Source: a virus (lineage: Duplodnaviria > Caudoviricetes). Taken from it: DNA of 57,875 nucleotides. Below are positions 42,994-53,568 of the stretch, piece after piece. Position 1 is the stretch's first letter. Each line of letters opens with the position of its first letter. A program made the translations under genes and the position numbers. The notes beneath the pieces are model-generated. The model was not told the origin of the DNA, ran no database searches, and worked only from the letters and a program-made list of their open reading frames with translations. The stretch covers positions 1 through 57,875 of IMG/VR virus record IMGVR_UViG_3300008459_000051. One strand, written 5' to 3'.

Positions 42994-43401
42994 TTACTCC
43001 ATCACCGGGATGGACCCTGCGAAGGCAGTACCCTGCCGATGAAAGCGCAAGCTGTAGCCATAGAGCGGCACGCCAAGGAGGTCTGCCAGCCTGTTGGCCC
43101 AGCGGCGGTATTCCTCTTCCAGTGCTGCCGTCTCATCGGGCCGCATGGTCAGGTTGTCCACGCTCTTGGCAGCCATTCGGTCCTGAGCATCGACCAGTCG
43201 GCACTCAATGCCGTCCAAGATGCCCAAGATGGAGCGCAGCTTGTCCTCCGCAGCCGGGAGGATCAGGTTCATAGCCGACTCAAGCAGGAACAGCGTCTGG
43301 AGCGGCTTGACCATGCCGTAGGACAAAGCAGCCGCACTCTGAACCGATGGGTACCCGGTGTGGTATCGCGTGCGCTGTTTTTCCTCGATGGTCAATGCCA
43401 C
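42994..43401 (-). CDS. head-tail adaptor-like protein
   Basis: Helical 135 aa shortly after capsid gene. Confidence 0.55.
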   Translation of the reverse strand: MALTIEEKQRTRYHTGYPSVQSAAALSYGMVKPLQTLFLLESAMNLILPAAEDKLRSILGILDGIECRLVDAQDRMAAKSVDNLTMRPDETAALEEEYRRWANRLADLLGVPLYGYSLRFHRQGTAFAGSIPVME

Positions 43402-43414
43402 GGCACACCTCTGC

Positions 43415-43720
43415 TTAGATCAGGGGCTCCAAGTACACGCCCTGCTCCAGAATACGCCGAACGCCCTCATGGCCATAGGAGCCGATGGAGACGATGGTGC
43501 CAGCCGGCAGCGTGGTGATCTGCCCAAACAGGCTCACGCGGCAGTCCTCAACCACGACCCACTTGGACGGGAGCACAACAGCGGCCTCTTCTTGCTCTTC
43601 CACGCTGCTAGGAAGCACCTCGGCCTCAACCAGCTGCGCCTCTTCGGGAGCGGCGAACTCTTCCACAGCCTCAATGGCTGCGGGGGCGTCCTGCTCAACC
43701 TCTTTGCGCTTGCGTGCCAT
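43415..43720 (-). CDS. hypothetical acidic protein
   Basis: 101 aa, AAGGA RBS. Confidence 0.7.
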   Translation of the reverse strand: MARKRKEVEQDAPAAIEAVEEFAAPEEAQLVEAEVLPSSVEEQEEAAVVLPSKWVVVEDCRVSLFGQITTLPAGTIVSIGSYGHEGVRRILEQGVYLEPLI

Positions 43721-43730
43721 GCTAAATCCT

Positions 43731-44152
43731 TAGCCCCTCTCAGGGGAAAAGCGGCGCGGGGCTGGTCATACAAGGGCGCTCAATTAACCAGGGTAGCTGA
43801 CCCCGTGACAGTAGTAGAGCTCCCAACAGACCAGCCCCGCAGACAAAGCTGATAGGACGGACGACGAGCCATAAAGGCGAGCGAGTCCTATCACCGCAGG
43901 GTGGGGCGATCCATGACGCAACAGCGTCAGGAGTTGCCCCGAAAGCCAGGCAGCAAAGGCCCGGCACAAACCGGCTGCATACAAAGGCCCACCACAGGTG
44001 AGCAGCAAGCCGGCATTCGGCCAAGGTGGCTCCCGAAGGAGCCGCACATAAACCCACATCGCGGGTGGCCGAAGCTGTGTTCCTATGAACCTGAGAGGCG
44101 CCCGCTTGTGGTTCAGGCAGGGCGCCTCTCAGTCTATCCGATCAAGGGGCTA
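43731..44152 (+). ncRNA. candidate structured non-coding RNA
   Basis: Consecutive stems of 8-13 bp with A-rich linkers; non-canonical pairs are G.U on + strand. Confidence 0.5.
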
Positions 44153-45559
44153 CTCGCCGCCCATCACAACCACGAACCGCTTAAAGCGTGCAGCGTCACC
44201 CGTGGTGGCGTCCGTGCGAACCGGCCAGTCACCGATGAACTTCCAGCTGGTCGAAACCAGATCCTGGAGGCGGTTCAGGGGCGAACGGAGGATCAGCTGG
44301 ATGCGGTCGGTGAAGACCTCAATGCTGTTGTTCGTCACGCGGGGCTCGCCAACCTTGCCGGTGATGCCAGCGTCGGTCATCAGGCCCGACAGATCCTGGT
44401 GGTACTCGTAGATACCGCCCTGACCGGTGAACAGTGCGCGGTGAACCTTGACGCCGGCAGTGGTGCCGTCGTTGTAGAGCTCGCCTGCGAACGGATCGTC
44501 CTGCGTGAAGGTGGCCGTGTCGCCGCCCTCGACGGTCTCGGGAACCGGGCACTCCGAGTTACGGAAGAACACGGTGTTGAGCAGCTCGCCCAGCGCAAAC
44601 TGACGGTACATGTAGTAGTCAGGCAGCGAGGTGAGCAGCTGGCGCCATTCCTGATCCGCGAACACCTGAGCCTGCGAGGTCGGGTCAAGGTGGCAGTGGA
44701 AGCGACCGTCAGCGTGTTCCGGCACGTTCTGCTGCCAGAAGCGAGCAACGGCAGCGCGAATGTCCGACAGCTTCAGGATGTCGTTGGAGCCGATGTCGTC
44801 AACGCTGTTGCCGCCACCGACGCGCACGACGTAGGAGCGGTCTGCGCTGTAGACGTAGCCACGATCCAGCACGGTCACTGCGCCACCCGTCAGGGTGATG
44901 GTGCCGGGGCCGGTCTCGTCGCCAGCAACGTCAGGCGAGAAACCGACAACCGAACGCACAACCGGAGCTGCGAGGCCGCTGTCGTAGATGGTCACGAGCA
45001 GGGGGTTGTTGGTCGAGACGTAGTCGAAACGAACCGGCGAGCCAGTTGCGAGATCCGGGCGGCGTGCGCGGGTGAAGCCGTTGAGGCGCTTCACGCGCAG
45101 GGTGGTCACGGCAGCCTGGTTGCCATCGGCAACGGTCCAGCCCGACTCAGCCGCGTTGTACATGCGGTCACGAACGATACGGTTCATGGCCTGACCGGCG
45201 CTCATACCCAGCTGGTGGGCGTTACGCAGGAACAGGTTGGCAATAGCCGTGATGCTCGTCGGCATGTGGGTGTCGATGCTGTCAGCGTACTGCTGAAGCG
45301 TCGCGGTCCACTGCTCGGCAGCGTAGGTCGAAGGAGCCGGATCAGATCCCGGCTGGAGCGGGCGCATCTTCGGGCGAACAAGGCCCGTGCCCGTGAAGAC
45401 CATGCTGTCACCGATGTTGGCAGGCCACACCTGGGGGGTCGCCTCGCCACGGAACAGCAGCCGGGGGAACAGAGCGTCGTGGAACGCACGCTCAAGGATG
45501 TTTTCCTGCACAAGCGCCCGGATCTCGGGCGTCTGGAGGATCGTGGAAAAATCTGCCAT
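44150..45559 (-). CDS. major capsid protein
   Basis: 469 aa, after scaffold, strong codon bias, LQQYADSID E-loop-like segment. Confidence 0.85.
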   Translation of the reverse strand: MADFSTILQTPEIRALVQENILERAFHDALFPRLLFRGEATPQVWPANIGDSMVFTGTGLVRPKMRPLQPGSDPAPSTYAAEQWTATLQQYADSIDTHMPTSITAIANLFLRNAHQLGMSAGQAMNRIVRDRMYNAAESGWTVADGNQAAVTTLRVKRLNGFTRARRPDLATGSPVRFDYVSTNNPLLVTIYDSGLAAPVVRSVVGFSPDVAGDETGPGTITLTGGAVTVLDRGYVYSADRSYVVRVGGGNSVDDIGSNDILKLSDIRAAVARFWQQNVPEHADGRFHCHLDPTSQAQVFADQEWRQLLTSLPDYYMYRQFALGELLNTVFFRNSECPVPETVEGGDTATFTQDDPFAGELYNDGTTAGVKVHRALFTGQGGIYEYHQDLSGLMTDAGITGKVGEPRVTNNSIEVFTDRIQLILRSPLNRLQDLVSTSWKFIGDWPVRTDATTGDAARFKRFVVVMGGE

Positions 45560-45613
45560 CAGTCATCTCCGTTCAAGTTGGGCGCATCATGCAGCCAACC
45601 GCGTTTTCAGTCA

Positions 45614-46468
45614 CTAGATGGTCGGGGCGAATCCCCGCGACCGCATCAACTTCTGGAACTCTTCCTGGCTCATGCTGCGAGCATCCATTCGACCCGCTGC
45701 GCCCTGAGCCGCCTGCACGCTGCCAGCCTTGGGAGCGGATGGGGCCGCGCCAACGCCAGTACCAGTGGTGGCAGGCACCACAAGCTCACCGAAGAGGTAC
45801 GGGTGCGACTGCCGAAGACCACCAAAGAACTTGGTCTCGTCAAACGACGCCAGTGCCTTCTCGTCCTTGCCTTCAAGTTCCCGCTGGATCAGCCGCAGGG
45901 CGTAGTCCACGTCCTTGACACCATTGGAGACTGCCGTTTCGCGCAGTGCGAACTCAGCTTCCTTGGCCTCAAGAGTACGCTGGAGCTTACGGCGCTGTGC
46001 CTGTTCAGCTGCGAACTGCTTTGCCAGCTTCTCCCGCTCACGCTGGAGTCGCTGCATCTGCTTGGCTGCATCGTTCTGAGCCTGCGGCTGTGCAGCGGTT
46101 TGCACCTCTTCATCCGCATAGAACTCAGGCTCTGCTGCCTTCTGCACCGGAGCTGCCTTGGCCGGCGCAGGCTTGGCCGTGTTGGCCTTAGCTGCCGCCA
46201 TGGCTGCGATGGCGTCATCAATGCTCGAAAAACCAGCGGCCTTGAACTTGGCCTCCAGCTCCGTCACTGCTTCACGCTTACCGCGCTGCCGCTGCTCTTC
46301 CTTCAGCTTGCCAATGGCGTGCTGGGGAAGGATGACGTTCTTGCCGCCCGCAATAGTGGGCAGTCCCGGTTCTGCTGCTGCCTCGATGGCTGGAGCCTCG
46401 ACGACAGGAGTCACTTCCGCCACGGGGGCGTCAGTAACCGGATTCAACTGATTGTTCTCTTCCTGCAT
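45614..46468 (-). CDS. capsid scaffolding protein
   Basis: Coiled coil, DVDYAL, HPYLF, MSQEEF; AAGGAG RBS. Confidence 0.8.
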   Translation of the reverse strand: MQEENNQLNPVTDAPVAEVTPVVEAPAIEAAAEPGLPTIAGGKNVILPQHAIGKLKEEQRQRGKREAVTELEAKFKAAGFSSIDDAIAAMAAAKANTAKPAPAKAAPVQKAAEPEFYADEEVQTAAQPQAQNDAAKQMQRLQREREKLAKQFAAEQAQRRKLQRTLEAKEAEFALRETAVSNGVKDVDYALRLIQRELEGKDEKALASFDETKFFGGLRQSHPYLFGELVVPATTGTGVGAAPSAPKAGSVQAAQGAAGRMDARSMSQEEFQKLMRSRGFAPTI

Positions 46469-46620
46469 ACCGCTCTCCTTCTCTCGCCTTTCCGACTATT
46501 CACCGCCGTCGTAAGCGTGGTGACGGTCGAAGTGCGAGCTTCTGCTGGGAATGACTAAACGGGCCGTGTCCCGCTAGTCGGTGAACTGCAAAACGCACAC
46601 GGGCGGAAACGAGGTAGTGC

Positions 46621-49784: not shown

Positions 49785-49898
49785 AAACGGCTCCTGAGCG
49801 CGTTAGAGGTGTCGGGATGGGTACAGACTGCGGCGAGGTGGCGGTCGGCGCTTGGCGGGCCGTTTACGGCCAAGCAAACGCCATTCGCCAAGCGCCCG

Positions 49899-49984
49899 CG
49901 CTTTAGGCTGGAGTGGATGGGGCGCAACCTCTTCCTGTCCAGACCAACTCAGTCCCCGCTTTCGCTTTAGGCTGGAGTGGATGG
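49899..49984. repeat. 22-bp direct repeat x2
   Basis: CGCTTTAGGCTGGAGTGGATGG at 49899-49920 and 49963-49984. Confidence 0.9.
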
Positions 49985-50052
49985 ACCCTAGAGACCCTCC
50001 CCTTCAGCCTTCTTTACCAACTGAACGCAACCGCGATAGCGGTTGCATCTTT

Positions 50053-50243
50053 GAGGAGAGAGCGTAGCTCTCTCTGAGAAGATATCTTCTGGGTACTTAT
50101 AGGTGATGCCACTTGATTATTGCTCCACCCAGCCTCTTCTCTAGACTTCTTGTGCGGCTTCGTCAAGAAGCCGCAATACGAGGAGAGAGCGTAGCTCTCT
50201 CTGAGTATTTCTTCTGGGTACTTATAGGTGATGCCACTTGATT
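50053..50243. repeat. ~65-bp direct repeat x2 with internal palindrome
   Basis: GAGGAGAGAGCGTAGCTCTCTCTGAG-N5/7-CTTCTGGGTACTTATAGGTGATGCCACTTGATT at 50053-50118 and 50180-50243. Confidence 0.9.
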
Positions 50244-50356
50244 TTCCGCCCCTGTTTTTAAGGGGTTTTCGCATCACTGCCCTGACCTCAACTCCAGACC
50301 ACCTTGATGCTCTACCAGTCCAGCCAAAGCCGCACTACCTGTCCGGCGCAACTTGA

Positions 50357-50740
50357 TTATTCTGGAGCCTCTGTCCCCTCCTGCCGAGCCTGCTCATGGA
50401 TGGAGTCATGGCAGCGATGGCAGATGGTGGCGAGGTTCTTAGGGTCCGTTCGACCAGCTACCTGATGCAGCTTGCGGAGGTAGGGGGAGGCCAAGATGTC
50501 AGCCTTGTGGTGGATGGTCAGATCCTGAGTGCCCCCGCACTTGTGGCAGTGCCAGCCATCTCGGCGGAACACGCCCAGCACGATGGAGGGAGGCAGCCCG
50601 CCCTTGCCCTGTGAGTGCAGGGTGGCGCCATGCTCCTTGGCCTCGATCTGGATGCGATCAAGTGCCTTGGCATCGCTGCTGGGCATCGGCTTCTCTGGCT
50701 TGCGCCGGAAGCTCATGTAGCGGGCTGCCTGCTCTCCCAT
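50357..50740 (-). CDS. HNH endonuclease
   Basis: RRDGWHCHKCG, LTIHH, NLATICHRCHDSIH. Confidence 0.85.
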   Translation of the reverse strand: MGEQAARYMSFRRKPEKPMPSSDAKALDRIQIEAKEHGATLHSQGKGGLPPSIVLGVFRRDGWHCHKCGGTQDLTIHHKADILASPYLRKLHQVAGRTDPKNLATICHRCHDSIHEQARQEGTEAPE

Positions 50741-51205: not shown

Positions 51206-51666
51206 CAGCTCTCCGAAGGTGCCTGCGGAGGGGCACCGTAAATGGTCATCAGGTCGGTCCAGCCATGGGCGCCAAACCCGAACTCTACCGAGCGGTCATC
51301 TATGAACAGGTCTGCCATGGGCTTTCCCTGCATCCCGTCATCGACGGCATCGAACACGCCGGGCAGCTCGGTAGCACAAAAGTTCAGCATCTGGTGGTAC
51401 CGAGCCCAATGAAGCTCTCGACCATGAGCCCATGCCGCCTCATGGGGCCGGCGCACTCCAGCCCGCACCAGAGGATCCCACTCAGGCGTGAACAGTAACG
51501 CTCTGTTCGCCCTAGCACTGTAAAGAAGTATTACATGCCCTGCCTGCTTCAGGCTTTCCAGCCCTTCCTTGGCGTGGGGCATGAACTGCAAGGGAGTGGT
51601 GGTGTCTGCGAAGGGTCGATCCTTCCGCACCACCACCCCGTCAAAGTCAACTGCTATGAACATCAT
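51205..51666 (-). CDS. HAD-superfamily hydrolase
   Basis: IAVDFDG, YSAR, KPMADLFIDDR. Confidence 0.8.
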   Translation of the reverse strand: MMFIAVDFDGVVVRKDRPFADTTTPLQFMPHAKEGLESLKQAGHVILLYSARANRALLFTPEWDPLVRAGVRRPHEAAWAHGRELHWARYHQMLNFCATELPGVFDAVDDGMQGKPMADLFIDDRSVEFGFGAHGWTDLMTIYGAPPQAPSES

Positions 51667-53318
51667 CCCTCCGACTTCGAGGGCGCCTTGGGAATGTTCA
51701 TGGTAGGCGAGTTTGGCTGCATCAGATTCAGCGTCATCGCGTCCTGCTGATCCAGCTGGGCCTGCTGCTCCGACTTGATCGTTTCAGCCATGGTCGTGGC
51801 ATCTTCGACAAGGAAGAACGGTGCCGAGAAGGCCACCGCGTGTTCCTGGTCCAGCACCCCGCCCGACTTGGCCATGACCGCTGCCTGAGTAGCCTGGATA
51901 GCCTCCTCCAGCGTCGGCTGGAAGTACGGCCCCCAGTTCAGGTTCAGCTGCCCACCATCACCCAAGCGCCGTGCCGCCTGCTCAACCACACCTTCAGCAC
52001 TTCTTCGCACCTTGGCCGGCATCTTGACGACCTGCCGCAGAATGGCGCCCTCGACAGCCTTCGGTGTCTCAAGGATACGAATGGCCGCAACCATCATCTC
52101 CAGCAGGGGCTTCACCAGCCGCTCGCCGTACTGCTCGCGCAGGATGTCCGCCTTGGCCAGCATGGAGGAGTAGAGGCGCTCCACCTCAGTTGCCGTCCGC
52201 CCATGCACGTTCGCATGGTCCAGAACGCACTGGGCGACCTCCAGAGCCATCTTCCGAAGCTCCTGCGCCATGTCCAGCGCCTGCTTCAGACCAGCCCCGC
52301 TGATCTCCATGTAGTCAGCAGAAGAGCCCTGCGGCAGCTTCAGAGCGTTCCGATTGCCCTTCTTGACGCTGTCCAGCTCTGCATCCGTGATGATCTTCAG
52401 GGTCGGGTCGCAGGAAGCAATGATCCCGATGTTCGCCTGAGAGAGCAGCGCGTCGATCTGATCGCAGATGTCATCAACGCCCAAGCAGTCAGGATCGCCG
52501 TCGATGTCGTCCTGCACCGGCATGTTCTGAGCCCACACCACAGGGCAGAACCCAAACCCGTGCTCGACCTCCCGCTCAACCTGCCACTCAGGCTCCTCAT
52601 CAGAGACAGGGCAGGCCACGAACAGCACATCCCGCTCGCGGTCAATCACTCGGCGGTACCAATAGGGGCGCTGAATCCATGCCCCCGTCTCCGGGTCACG
52701 CTCATCCACCGGAAACATGTACCGCTTCTCGATAGAGGCCAGCTTCAGCGCATGCCGATCCTCAAAGGTCGGAATGCACCAGCGGGGATCATGCACCTCA
52801 ACCACCGGCTTGCCATCCACGAACTGGAAGCCCACAGCCACGGTTCCCATGGACCCGCCATAGGTCCGCGCCATGATCATCGAGGGCCACAGCCGGCTCA
52901 CTTCAGCCAAGGTCCGAACGTAGTCCTCAGTTGCCGGATCTCCCTCCACCCGAAGGATCGGGTGCTTCCGGTCGCTGAACAGCAGCCCCGTAAAGCGGTC
53001 CACAATCACCTTGCGGAGATGGTAGGGAGTGCTGGGCCTTCGGAACTTCACAGGAAAGGTCGCACCTGCATCGTAGTAGCCAGGGGGCAGGAAGCCCGCC
53101 GAGGCAATCGCCTCCGCGTCAATCCCTTCCGCTCGCTCTGTTCCGTCCCAGTCGATCTTGCGGGCGCTGTACTGAGAGCCCCGATAGATCGACCAGAGCC
53201 GGTTCAGCTCCTGCTGCCGAGGACTCATCCCCAGCCGCGCCACCTTGTCCATCATGCCGCCAGCCAGCCCCGCCTGGAGCTGCCTCGCCTTAGCCATGTC
53301 GGGTCGAATGTTAGACAC
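51663..53318 (-). CDS. portal protein
   Basis: IVDRFTGLLF, HGFGFCPVV motif, ~550 aa after terL; GTG after GAGGAG. Confidence 0.85.
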   Translation of the reverse strand: MSNIRPDMAKARQLQAGLAGGMMDKVARLGMSPRQQELNRLWSIYRGSQYSARKIDWDGTERAEGIDAEAIASAGFLPPGYYDAGATFPVKFRRPSTPYHLRKVIVDRFTGLLFSDRKHPILRVEGDPATEDYVRTLAEVSRLWPSMIMARTYGGSMGTVAVGFQFVDGKPVVEVHDPRWCIPTFEDRHALKLASIEKRYMFPVDERDPETGAWIQRPYWYRRVIDRERDVLFVACPVSDEEPEWQVEREVEHGFGFCPVVWAQNMPVQDDIDGDPDCLGVDDICDQIDALLSQANIGIIASCDPTLKIITDAELDSVKKGNRNALKLPQGSSADYMEISGAGLKQALDMAQELRKMALEVAQCVLDHANVHGRTATEVERLYSSMLAKADILREQYGERLVKPLLEMMVAAIRILETPKAVEGAILRQVVKMPAKVRRSAEGVVEQAARRLGDGGQLNLNWGPYFQPTLEEAIQATQAAVMAKSGGVLDQEHAVAFSAPFFLVEDATTMAETIKSEQQAQLDQQDAMTLNLMQPNSPTMNIPKAPSKSEG

Positions 53319-53568
53319 TGAACGGCTCCTCAAGTGACATCAGCACCAGCGCCTGCTCCAAAGCAGCAATCGCCAACTGCACAGCCTTACGCGCTTCCGG
53401 CAATGCCGGCGGTCGACAGAGCACCAGCCCAGCCACAGCCCCTCGACAAGCCACTTCAGCACTCTCAATGCTGGCAGCAGCAAGACGAATTGGGTCAGCC
53501 TTGTAGGGCTCTTTGGCCTTTTGCGCCTGATCGTGGTCAATGGCTTCTTGCAATGTTGCTTCATCCAT
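53311..53568 (-). CDS. hypothetical protein
   Basis: ATG 53568 within track ORF; fills operon gap. Confidence 0.5.
   Translation of the reverse strand: MDEATLQEAIDHDQAQKAKEPYKADPIRLAAASIESAEVACRGAVAGLVLCRPPALPEARKAVQLAIAALEQALVLMSLEEPFSV

Follow-up and report, generated by a model that had tools for sequence, protein, structure and literature searches.

We analysed the region directly behind the major capsid gene in IMG/VR virus record IMGVR_UViG_3300008459_000051, a stretch of 57,875 nucleotides (nt) that is estimated to be 65% complete and is referred to here, at its full length, as the window. Between the capsid open reading frame (ORF) and the next late ORF, which encodes a protein of 101 amino acids (aa), there is a gap of 429 nt (window 43721-44149), and this gap is occupied by an array of hairpins that ends in a rod closed off by a long-range helix, P0. 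The element is a conserved non-coding structured RNA outside any Rfam family, it belongs to an undescribed family of post-capsid RNAs in related uncultured phages, and the functional RNA is very probably carried by the late-gene (−) strand. Its parts and its immediate neighbours, 5′ to 3′ on the − strand and with stem lengths in base pairs (bp), are the following:

44150-45559, − strand: major capsid gene, 469 aa (from the ORF list; PHROG family phrog_1357, major head protein, expectation value (E) 4.3e-13)
44150-44152, − strand: TAG stop codon of the capsid gene, directly adjoining the element on its 5′ side
44091-44132, − strand: post-stop hairpin with a perfect 13-bp stem (44120-44132 with 44091-44103), an exact inverted repeat
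44017-44072, − strand: branched 5′ domain, closing helix 44067-44072 with 44017-44022 (from covariation)
44052-44066, − strand: inner hairpin ACCCGC-GAU-GUGGGU of the branched domain (from the predicted fold)
44028-44043, − strand: C(UUCG)G hairpin of the branched domain, the window's own UUCG hairpin
43987-44003, − strand: hairpin GCUCACC-UGU-GGUGGGC, followed by the U-rich tail CUUUGUAUG (columns 76-82/86-92, 100% paired)
43903-43940, − strand: island hairpin GGGGC-AAC-UCC-UGACGC-UGUU-GCGUCA-UGG-AUC-GCCCC, a family-wide motif whose inner stem covaries
43893-43897, − strand: 5′ strand of the long-range helix P0, GCGGU, pairing with 43751-43755
43851-43892, − strand: core hairpin GAUAGGAC...GUCCUAUC with inner GCC-UUUAU-GGC, specific to the window's clade
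43756-43840, − strand: rod of roughly 100 nt (covariance models R1 and R2)
43829-43840 with 43756-43767, − strand: basal 12-bp stem of the rod
43817-43824 with 43774-43781, − strand: middle 8-bp stem of the rod
43789-43805, − strand: apical hairpin of the rod, with a conserved GGUUAAU on its 3′ side
43797-43811, − strand: H-type pseudoknot at the rod apex, CUG 43809-43811 (5′ internal loop) with CAG 43797-43799 (apical loop)
43751-43755, − strand: 3′ strand of P0, GCCGC, which closes the long-range helix
43747-43750, − strand: UUUU after the 3′ strand of P0, the terminator-like end of the element
43734-43746, − strand: small hairpin CCCC-UGAGA-GGGG
43727-43731, − strand: ribosome-binding site AAGGA of the 101-aa gene
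43718-43720, − strand: ATG of the 101-aa gene
43415-43720, − strand: late gene after the element, 101-aa ORF with the N-terminus MARKRKE (from the ORF list; homologues in relatives)
42994-43401, − strand: 135-aa ORF, the second after the element (from the ORF list)

P0 encloses the core hairpin together with the rod, and its helix closes a three-way junction. No family was assigned to the 101-aa and 135-aa ORFs, the former being without a PHROG or Pfam match.

A first-pass annotation, made from the letters of the window, had described the gap as unusually long and as almost fully tiled by stems, and the gap with its stems is real. As an RNA, the gap folds with −214.7 kcal/mol on the − strand (z −7.26) and with −213.1 kcal/mol on the + strand (z −8.80), and none of 100 dinucleotide shuffles was as good for either strand. 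The six stems that had been named are all in the sequence where they had been placed. The 12-bp stem, TGATAGGAC, the GGGGC..GCCCC hairpin and the 13-bp stem are, moreover, kept in relatives with compensatory changes. The GGCUCC/GGAGCC hairpin is present in the window, but other hairpins take its place in relatives, and the CCGG-CACAAA-CCGG hairpin, likewise present in the window, is not chosen by the consensus folds.

The conservation of the element was examined in relatives of the capsid protein, of which there are 102 in IMG/VR; the best 80 of these 102 were taken as loci. A sequence search detects the element in five of the 80 (L002, L004, L005, L007 and L077, with 73-98% identity), and pattern scans add an IMG/VR contig, L087, with an element identical to that of L077, a metagenome contig, L088, and a contig of a genome bin, L089. 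This close set comprises eight distinct sequences of the element. Using an alignment of the conserved 3′ 357 nt (A4), in which pairs were accepted if they were predicted independently in at least six of the eight sequences, we obtained 69 pairs in 10 helices, with 98.4% of the cells paired. Twenty of the 69 pairs change on both sides, a number that none of 500 shuffles reaches, the slid controls giving 0-4. Covariation of related post-capsid regions, which the first-pass annotation had put forward as a check, is thus found. When P0, the pseudoknot and one further hairpin are included, the number of pairs rises to 83, and 22 of these change on both sides.

A hairpin stands at the post-stop site in all seven aligned relatives, with a differing sequence, and pairs 103-108/154-159 change on both sides. 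For the closing helix of the branched domain (helix 1) the same is true of five of the six pairs, and in the inner hairpin at 44052-44066 the column pair 16/22 is found as G-C, G.U and A-U among the sequences, read on the − strand. Pair 78/90 of the hairpin at 43987-44003 is U.G in five sequences and C-G in three. The core hairpin motif was found in six IMG/VR contigs, one metagenome contig and one genome contig; in the eight aligned sequences seven of its eight outer pairs are invariant and one is changed on both sides, and the six inner pairs are invariant. The small hairpin at 43734-43746 is kept with altered sequence, as CCUCA/UGAGG in L007 and as CCCU/AGGG in L077. Over the close set the element is 46% invariant, similar to the neighbouring small genes, and its best-conserved 60 nt, which hold the core hairpin, are 88% invariant, equal to the best capsid segments. 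An exceptional conservation of the core hairpin was therefore rejected, as it is no better conserved than those segments. In the same way, a helix TAGCCCCT/AGGGGCTA, which the first-pass annotation had proposed as closing the whole unit and whose TAG is the capsid stop codon, was discarded because it is not conserved: it carries a mismatch in L002, and L004, L005, L007 and L077 have no complementarity at these places.

No reading frame is open in all homologues of the element, and L088 and L089 have at least three stops in every frame. The variable columns of the element alignment are distributed 41/41/37 by codon phase, and indels of 1 and 2 nt are present. On these grounds (stops in each frame, no codon periodicity, frameshifting indels) the protein-coding reading was rejected. 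The first-pass annotation had named a conserved ORF across the region as the finding that would speak against it, and no such ORF exists in the homologues. The window itself holds open frames of 91-105 codons, which could be taken for a decayed or unrecognised gene. The frames of 54-204 codons that lie behind the capsid gene in the corresponding slot of 25 distant relatives with long post-capsid regions are, however, mutually dissimilar, one close pair excepted, and the coding explanation is largely refuted. A DNA-level element, serving packaging, replication or recombination through a fold of single-stranded DNA, would belong to the same alternative, since Watson-Crick covariation by itself cannot separate RNA from single-stranded DNA; the strand-asymmetric G.U pairs and the enrichment of UUCG hairpins described below point to RNA. 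Taken as a whole, the DNA-level or coding explanation is extremely unlikely.

ORF length alone is unreliable in this genome, because the + strand carries at 43901-46558 an open frame of 885 codons, antisense to the capsid and scaffold genes, that is an artefact of GC-rich DNA and not a gene. A greedy list of gene-free gaps, drawn up for the whole window, was also discarded, as long antisense ORFs arise in GC-rich DNA.

A scan of 43300-44600 with Rfam 15 gave, as the best match inside the element, anti-hemB, whose 14.7 bits (E 2.2) fall short of its threshold of 49.5. None of the Rfam models for transfer-messenger RNA (tmRNA), RNase P, the signal recognition particle (SRP), riboswitches, self-cleaving ribozymes, GOLLD, ROOL and Mu-gpT-DE reaches the gathering threshold on the element. 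In 16 related loci there were no matches at the gathering threshold, and in the whole window the only matches are two tRNAs. With no Rfam family on the element, the first-pass annotation was correct in recognising no tmRNA, RNase P, SRP or intron signature, and its proposal of an undescribed structured RNA is confirmed by an element that is conserved, non-coding and outside Rfam. A DNA search of GenBank phages with 43400-44500 returned no match.

In metatranscriptomes, two libraries from two studies hold one contig each inside the element (43801-43951 and 43896-44057), both being unstranded, with DNA carry-over possible. In the metatranscriptome runs X19 and X20, no contig covers the capsid gene or the other flanks of the 2.8-kilobase (kb) stretch, which is not counted as a result, and neither strand nor level can be read from contigs. 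Two runs labelled 'METAGENOMIC RNA-Seq', X10 and X18, which are probably DNA, cover both the capsid gene and the element.

The element is not an isolated case, and we find a family of such elements behind the capsid gene in many related phages. The distance from the capsid end to the homologue of the 135-aa ORF is at least 640 nt in 53 of the 70 loci that could be placed and less in 17. The long post-capsid regions fold as hairpin arrays and have in common a near-invariant island of 30 nt, GCAAACCCUGGC-loop-GCCAUGGAACCGC, within a covarying outer stem. The hairpin at 43903-43940 is the form that this family-wide motif, GCAAACCC...GGAACCGC, takes in the window; where the consensus reads GCAA(A)CCC...GGA(A)CCGC, its sequence is GCAACUCC...GGAUCGC, and it lies 61 nt ahead of the rod. 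Searched as a regular expression, the motif is present in 20 of 26 family members, the window among them, and L077 has the literal consensus. Across all of IMG/VR the island pattern occurs in 40 contigs. Thirty-nine of them carry it on the same strand as a capsid homologue (43-79% identity) and 172-862 nt behind it, with a median of 246 nt, and the 40th has no capsid match. The rod is also present in eight of 19 loci tested from the island scan, these being new contigs as judged by their names. The 5′ half of the element varies widely in sequence and length among the relatives.

The rod was followed with two covariance models. R1 describes the terminal rod of the window's clade (43747-43844) and was run without filters; in 10 of 13 distant loci the post-capsid rod was its best match (E 3.3e-5 to 0.64), each time just upstream of the next gene and on the capsid strand, while L011, L020 and L040 gave no post-capsid rod match. 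The widened model, R2, was made from L005, L007, L077 and ten distant relatives, with the window's own sequence excluded. It finds the rod in 28 of 76 sources at E of 0.0031 or lower, in each case downstream of the capsid gene and on its strand, and 10 of the 28 sources are outside the training set. On the window, R2 marks 43747-43844 (− strand) as a single copy, with 77.2 bits and E 8.3e-14. Among 26 members, 94.9% of the rod cells are paired, 25 of the 26 pairs change on both sides, and the covariation score is 0.921, compared to 0.199 in shuffles, in an alignment that is fitted to the model.

The pseudoknot at the rod apex is preserved as well. Its middle pair is U-A in four and C-G in four of the eight close sequences, and at least three Watson-Crick pairs are formed in 25 of 25 rods (L041, whose apex is absent from the alignment, was left out of this count); 2000 shuffles average 13.1 such rods and reach 21 at most. 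Five sets of pairs are used, CUG/CAG, CCG/CGG, CCC/GGG, CGC/GCG and CGG/CCG, and the swap is a clean one between L080 (CGG/CCG) and L081 (CCG/CGG). In L050, L057, L060 and L065, which R2 does not detect, the rod apex seems to be different: the partner of a hairpin loop, UUCGUCU, is a GGACG/AGACG further downstream with UUAAU behind it, and the pseudoknot is seemingly on the 3′ and not on the 5′ side.

P0 is invariant in the eight close sequences, with its U.G pair in eight of eight. Across the family its strands covary at fixed places, one 8-14 nt beyond the island and the other 0-2 nt beyond the rod (GGCAGC/GCUGCC, GUAGUG/UGCUAC, GGUGGC/GCCACC and GAUGGC/GCCGUC), and at least 5 bp are found in 15 of 20. 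When the partner of the 3′ tail was sought with strict Watson-Crick pairing, the matches were scattered, and only an island-anchored search that allowed G.U led to a consistent place.

The first-pass annotation had assigned the RNA to the + strand, antisense to the late genes, with the wobble pairs as G.U on that strand. Early strand tests were ambiguous, with 13 vs 13 in the shared pairs of RNAalifold (six sequences) and 16 vs 24 in the union of robust pairs, so that the strand call rests on later and wider tests. The consensus fold has −137.5 kcal/mol on the − strand and −123.3 kcal/mol on the + strand. In the helices predicted on both strands, seven exceptions are G.U on the − strand and one on the + strand, and they include stepwise series such as that of the hairpin at 44052-44066; the U.G pair that P0 has in all eight close sequences agrees with this. 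In the rod of the 26 members, G.U on the − strand is counted 25 times compared to nine A.C (19 vs 4 for internal pairs), with the alignment fitted to a − strand model. Additionally, 43 non-redundant post-capsid regions (24.5 kb) contain 163 hairpins with four-base loops, and the UUCG hairpins among them number 39 on the capsid strand and none on the opposite one; in the remaining 268 kb of the same loci the numbers are 15 vs 3. A helix and a U-run directly before the ribosome-binding site of the next gene are, finally, a − strand layout, and this logic fits the − strand only.

Other observations speak for the + strand. The unpaired bases of structured RNAs are usually A-rich, and in the window those of the − strand comprise 82 U and 27 A; the linkers are hence A-rich on the + strand, as the first-pass annotation had noted, and their composition favours that strand. 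The minimum free energy is equally low on the + strand, as given above, and certain helix extensions use G.U on the + strand only, such as GGGGCGAU/GUUGCCCC, at columns 145/172 and 146/171 and, in L007 and L077, at 149/169. Against an antisense transcript, a simple scan of 43300-44600 found no sigma-70-like site on either strand, although the host promoter type may differ. Inside the element no terminator-like site is present on the + strand, whose end is without a U-run, while the hairpin at 43987-44003 was flagged as terminator-like on the − strand in a scan of the same range. Considering the wobble pairs, the consensus fold energy, the UUCG hairpins and the helix with its U-run, which all favour the − strand, we judge an antisense non-coding RNA very unlikely. 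The family-level evidence was needed to correct a strand call made from a single sequence.

The late genes downstream of the element span roughly 35 kb, and the layout of its 3′ end can be compared with that of relatives in which the gap is short. In eight short-gap relatives (77-98 nt), our own reading finds one GC-rich hairpin, a T-run and a ribosome-binding site after the capsid stop. In the long elements, as in the window, no U-run stands behind the post-stop hairpin; the U-run follows P0, just before the ribosome-binding site. Reading the tails ourselves, we found a run of at least four U within 14 nt after the rod in 16 of the 26 family members. The U-run at the far end before the ribosome-binding site, together with the terminator layout of the short-gap relatives, leads us to read the element as a leaky terminator and 3′-end protector. 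We accordingly give roughly an even chance to the explanation that it serves both as the long 3′ untranslated region (3′-UTR) of the capsid message and as leader to the late gene that follows, and that it tunes the amount of capsid versus downstream protein. The element would be an elaborated form of the plain hairpin and U-run terminator found in the short-gap relatives. A fraction of the polymerases would halt at P0, the rod and the U-run, and a part would continue into the late genes, while the hairpin array would serve as a nuclease-resistant tail that protects the 3′ end of the capsid message. A single late operon would then be predicted to yield capsid protein in large excess over the head-completion and tail proteins encoded downstream.

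Several points weigh against this explanation, in addition to the base composition and the + strand wobbles mentioned above. The U-run of the window is just 4 nt long, and 10 of the 26 members lack a run of four or more U in the 14 nt that follow the rod. P0 (GCGGU/GCCGC), which stacks on the rod, is the closing helix of a three-way junction and in this unlike a textbook terminator stem. It is invariant within the clade, and in the family test it was often matched by per-locus control windows, so that its support comes from positional consistency and covariation and not from the statistic. Termination, stabilisation and the effect on expression are, besides, steps that we infer from the sequence. 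A simple hairpin would also be enough for 3′-end protection or attenuation. The presence of a conserved island, a pseudoknot and a near-invariant core in addition thus hints at a partner or activity of a more specific kind. As these parts exceed the needs of simple protection, an RNA acting in trans and a sensing attenuator both stay under consideration.

A stable RNA derived from the 3′-UTR, cut from the capsid message or terminated off it, could act in trans, the terminator-like end then merely setting its 3′ end. With its island and pseudoknot, such an RNA might bind a protein of the phage or of the host, or it might form a larger RNA particle. The island, pseudoknot and near-invariant core, more elaborate than 3′-end protection requires, agree with this, and a site behind the most strongly expressed late gene would mean a high copy number. 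The contigs of two RNA libraries inside the element are weak support, and with 430-600 nt these elements are in the size class of GOLLD and ROOL, as given in 10.1101/2024.12.08.627333. Against this, the RNA is not known to have a processing site, a defined 5′ end or a partner, the 5′ half is widely variable, the short-gap relatives manage without the element, and no large RNA in Rfam matches it. We regard a trans-acting RNA as possible but doubtful. A bolder version seems to us rather unlikely. In it, the element would represent a new class of ornate phage RNAs of large size (400-600 nt), mass-produced at the end of the capsid message and then set free as stable particles that function in trans; late in infection, the island and the pseudoknotted rod would self-assemble or would bind a specific partner of phage or host origin.

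The order of parts at the 3′ end, where a conserved folded domain leads to a helix, a U-run and then the next ribosome-binding site, is also that of a sensing attenuator, in which the binding of a ligand or protein to the island, rod and pseudoknot would decide termination at P0 and the U-run and thereby time the expression of the late genes. The nucleotides of the pseudoknot and of the internal loops are conserved, and the Arg/Lys-rich start of the 101-aa protein is, as a speculation, a candidate RNA-binding arm. No known aptamer in Rfam matches the element of the window or the 16 related loci, any switch to an antiterminator pairing is a putative one, and the U-run is weak or absent in the 10 members already mentioned. 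An attenuator of this kind is, in our estimation, improbable.

The proposed leaky terminator can be compared with the textbook leaky intrinsic terminator behind a phage major capsid gene, T-phi of T7, after gene 10. As with T-phi, the element lies directly behind the major capsid gene in a long late operon and presents a helix and then a U-run; essential late genes are further downstream, so that read-through is needed, and the short-gap relatives of this phage carry a plain hairpin and T-run. Unlike T-phi, it is an array of ~430 nt with a long-range closing helix, a pseudoknotted rod and an island, its U-run has 4 nt, and its termination is a prediction. Mu-gpT-DE is a small RNA motif of unknown function downstream of the major head subunit genes of proteobacterial Mu-like phages. 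The element shares with it a conserved RNA structure consistently located just downstream of a phage major head gene, but its capsid family is phrog_1357 and the Rfam models are all above E = 0.1 on the element.

GOLLD and ROOL are large ornate RNAs of unknown function associated with phages and prophages, according to 10.1101/2024.12.08.627333. Like them, the element exceeds 400 nt, is multi-helical, pseudoknotted and non-coding, is carried by phages and comes from lake and other environmental samples. Unlike them, it has a constant place between two late genes, whose strand it shares, and a terminator-like module at its end; no sequence or structure match to them is found with Rfam, and much of its 5′ half is poorly conserved. 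We count the element among none of T7-type terminators, Mu-gpT-DE, GOLLD and ROOL, and the likeness is one of proposed function, of position, and of size and ornateness, respectively. A bulk prediction on IMG/VR lists 8495 candidate structured RNAs, of which 1241 overlap predicted Rho-independent terminators (PMC10690425). Its data source and type of object are those considered here, and its text mentions candidates upstream, not downstream, of the major capsid gene; the post-capsid family may be listed in its tables. Our literature search, which did not cover the tables of PMC10690425, found no description of such a post-capsid element.

Large structured RNAs that are backed by covariation and missing from Rfam are rare. 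The present one has a clear anatomy, a fixed genomic address and a graded natural series, from a plain terminator hairpin to arrays of 600 nt, within one phage lineage of freshwater and other environmental samples. It offers a system for asking how one operon yields a large excess of capsid over other late proteins, and how simple terminators grow into ornate RNA domains. Should it act in trans, it would join a small group of large phage RNAs of unknown function.

In the rest of the window, the long ORFs are almost all on the − strand between ~6 kb and 56 kb, and the head module further comprises two genes upstream of the capsid gene:

51663-53333, − strand: portal, SPP1-type (weak match)
45614-46468, − strand: scaffold (weak match)

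The 101-aa protein and its homologues have an Arg/Lys-rich start (MARKRKE, MGRRRKE, MARRRKD), which is followed by an acidic stretch, and many homologues in distant relatives start instead with a MAKK..DPLE-like motif.

Two contigs of the close set have peculiarities of their own. In L087 (IMG/VR contig 3300008261_000086) the capsid match at 291-1524 is in two pieces, covering query residues 1-263 and 320-470; these pieces, whose DNA ranges overlap slightly, suggest that the capsid gene carries a deletion or frameshift or that the contig is misassembled. L089 is a contig of 17.8 kb from a metagenome-assembled genome, in a bin titled uncultured Acidimicrobiaceae; its capsid gene has 89% identity, and the element is there in full. 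The contig is phage DNA binned together with that of the host, or else a prophage, and the bin points at best weakly to an actinobacterial host.

Upstream of the head module there are two sets of direct repeats, at 49899-50243. The first has a 26-nt unit with the palindrome GAGGAGAGAGCGTAGCTCTCTCTGAG inside, in two copies 127 nt apart, and a 49-nt repeat of 90% identity adjoins this palindromic unit; the second is a 22-nt repeat in two copies 64 nt apart. The surrounding 830 nt (49785-50614) fold with z −3.2 on the − strand, and the stretch that holds the repeats may be a regulatory or promoter region.

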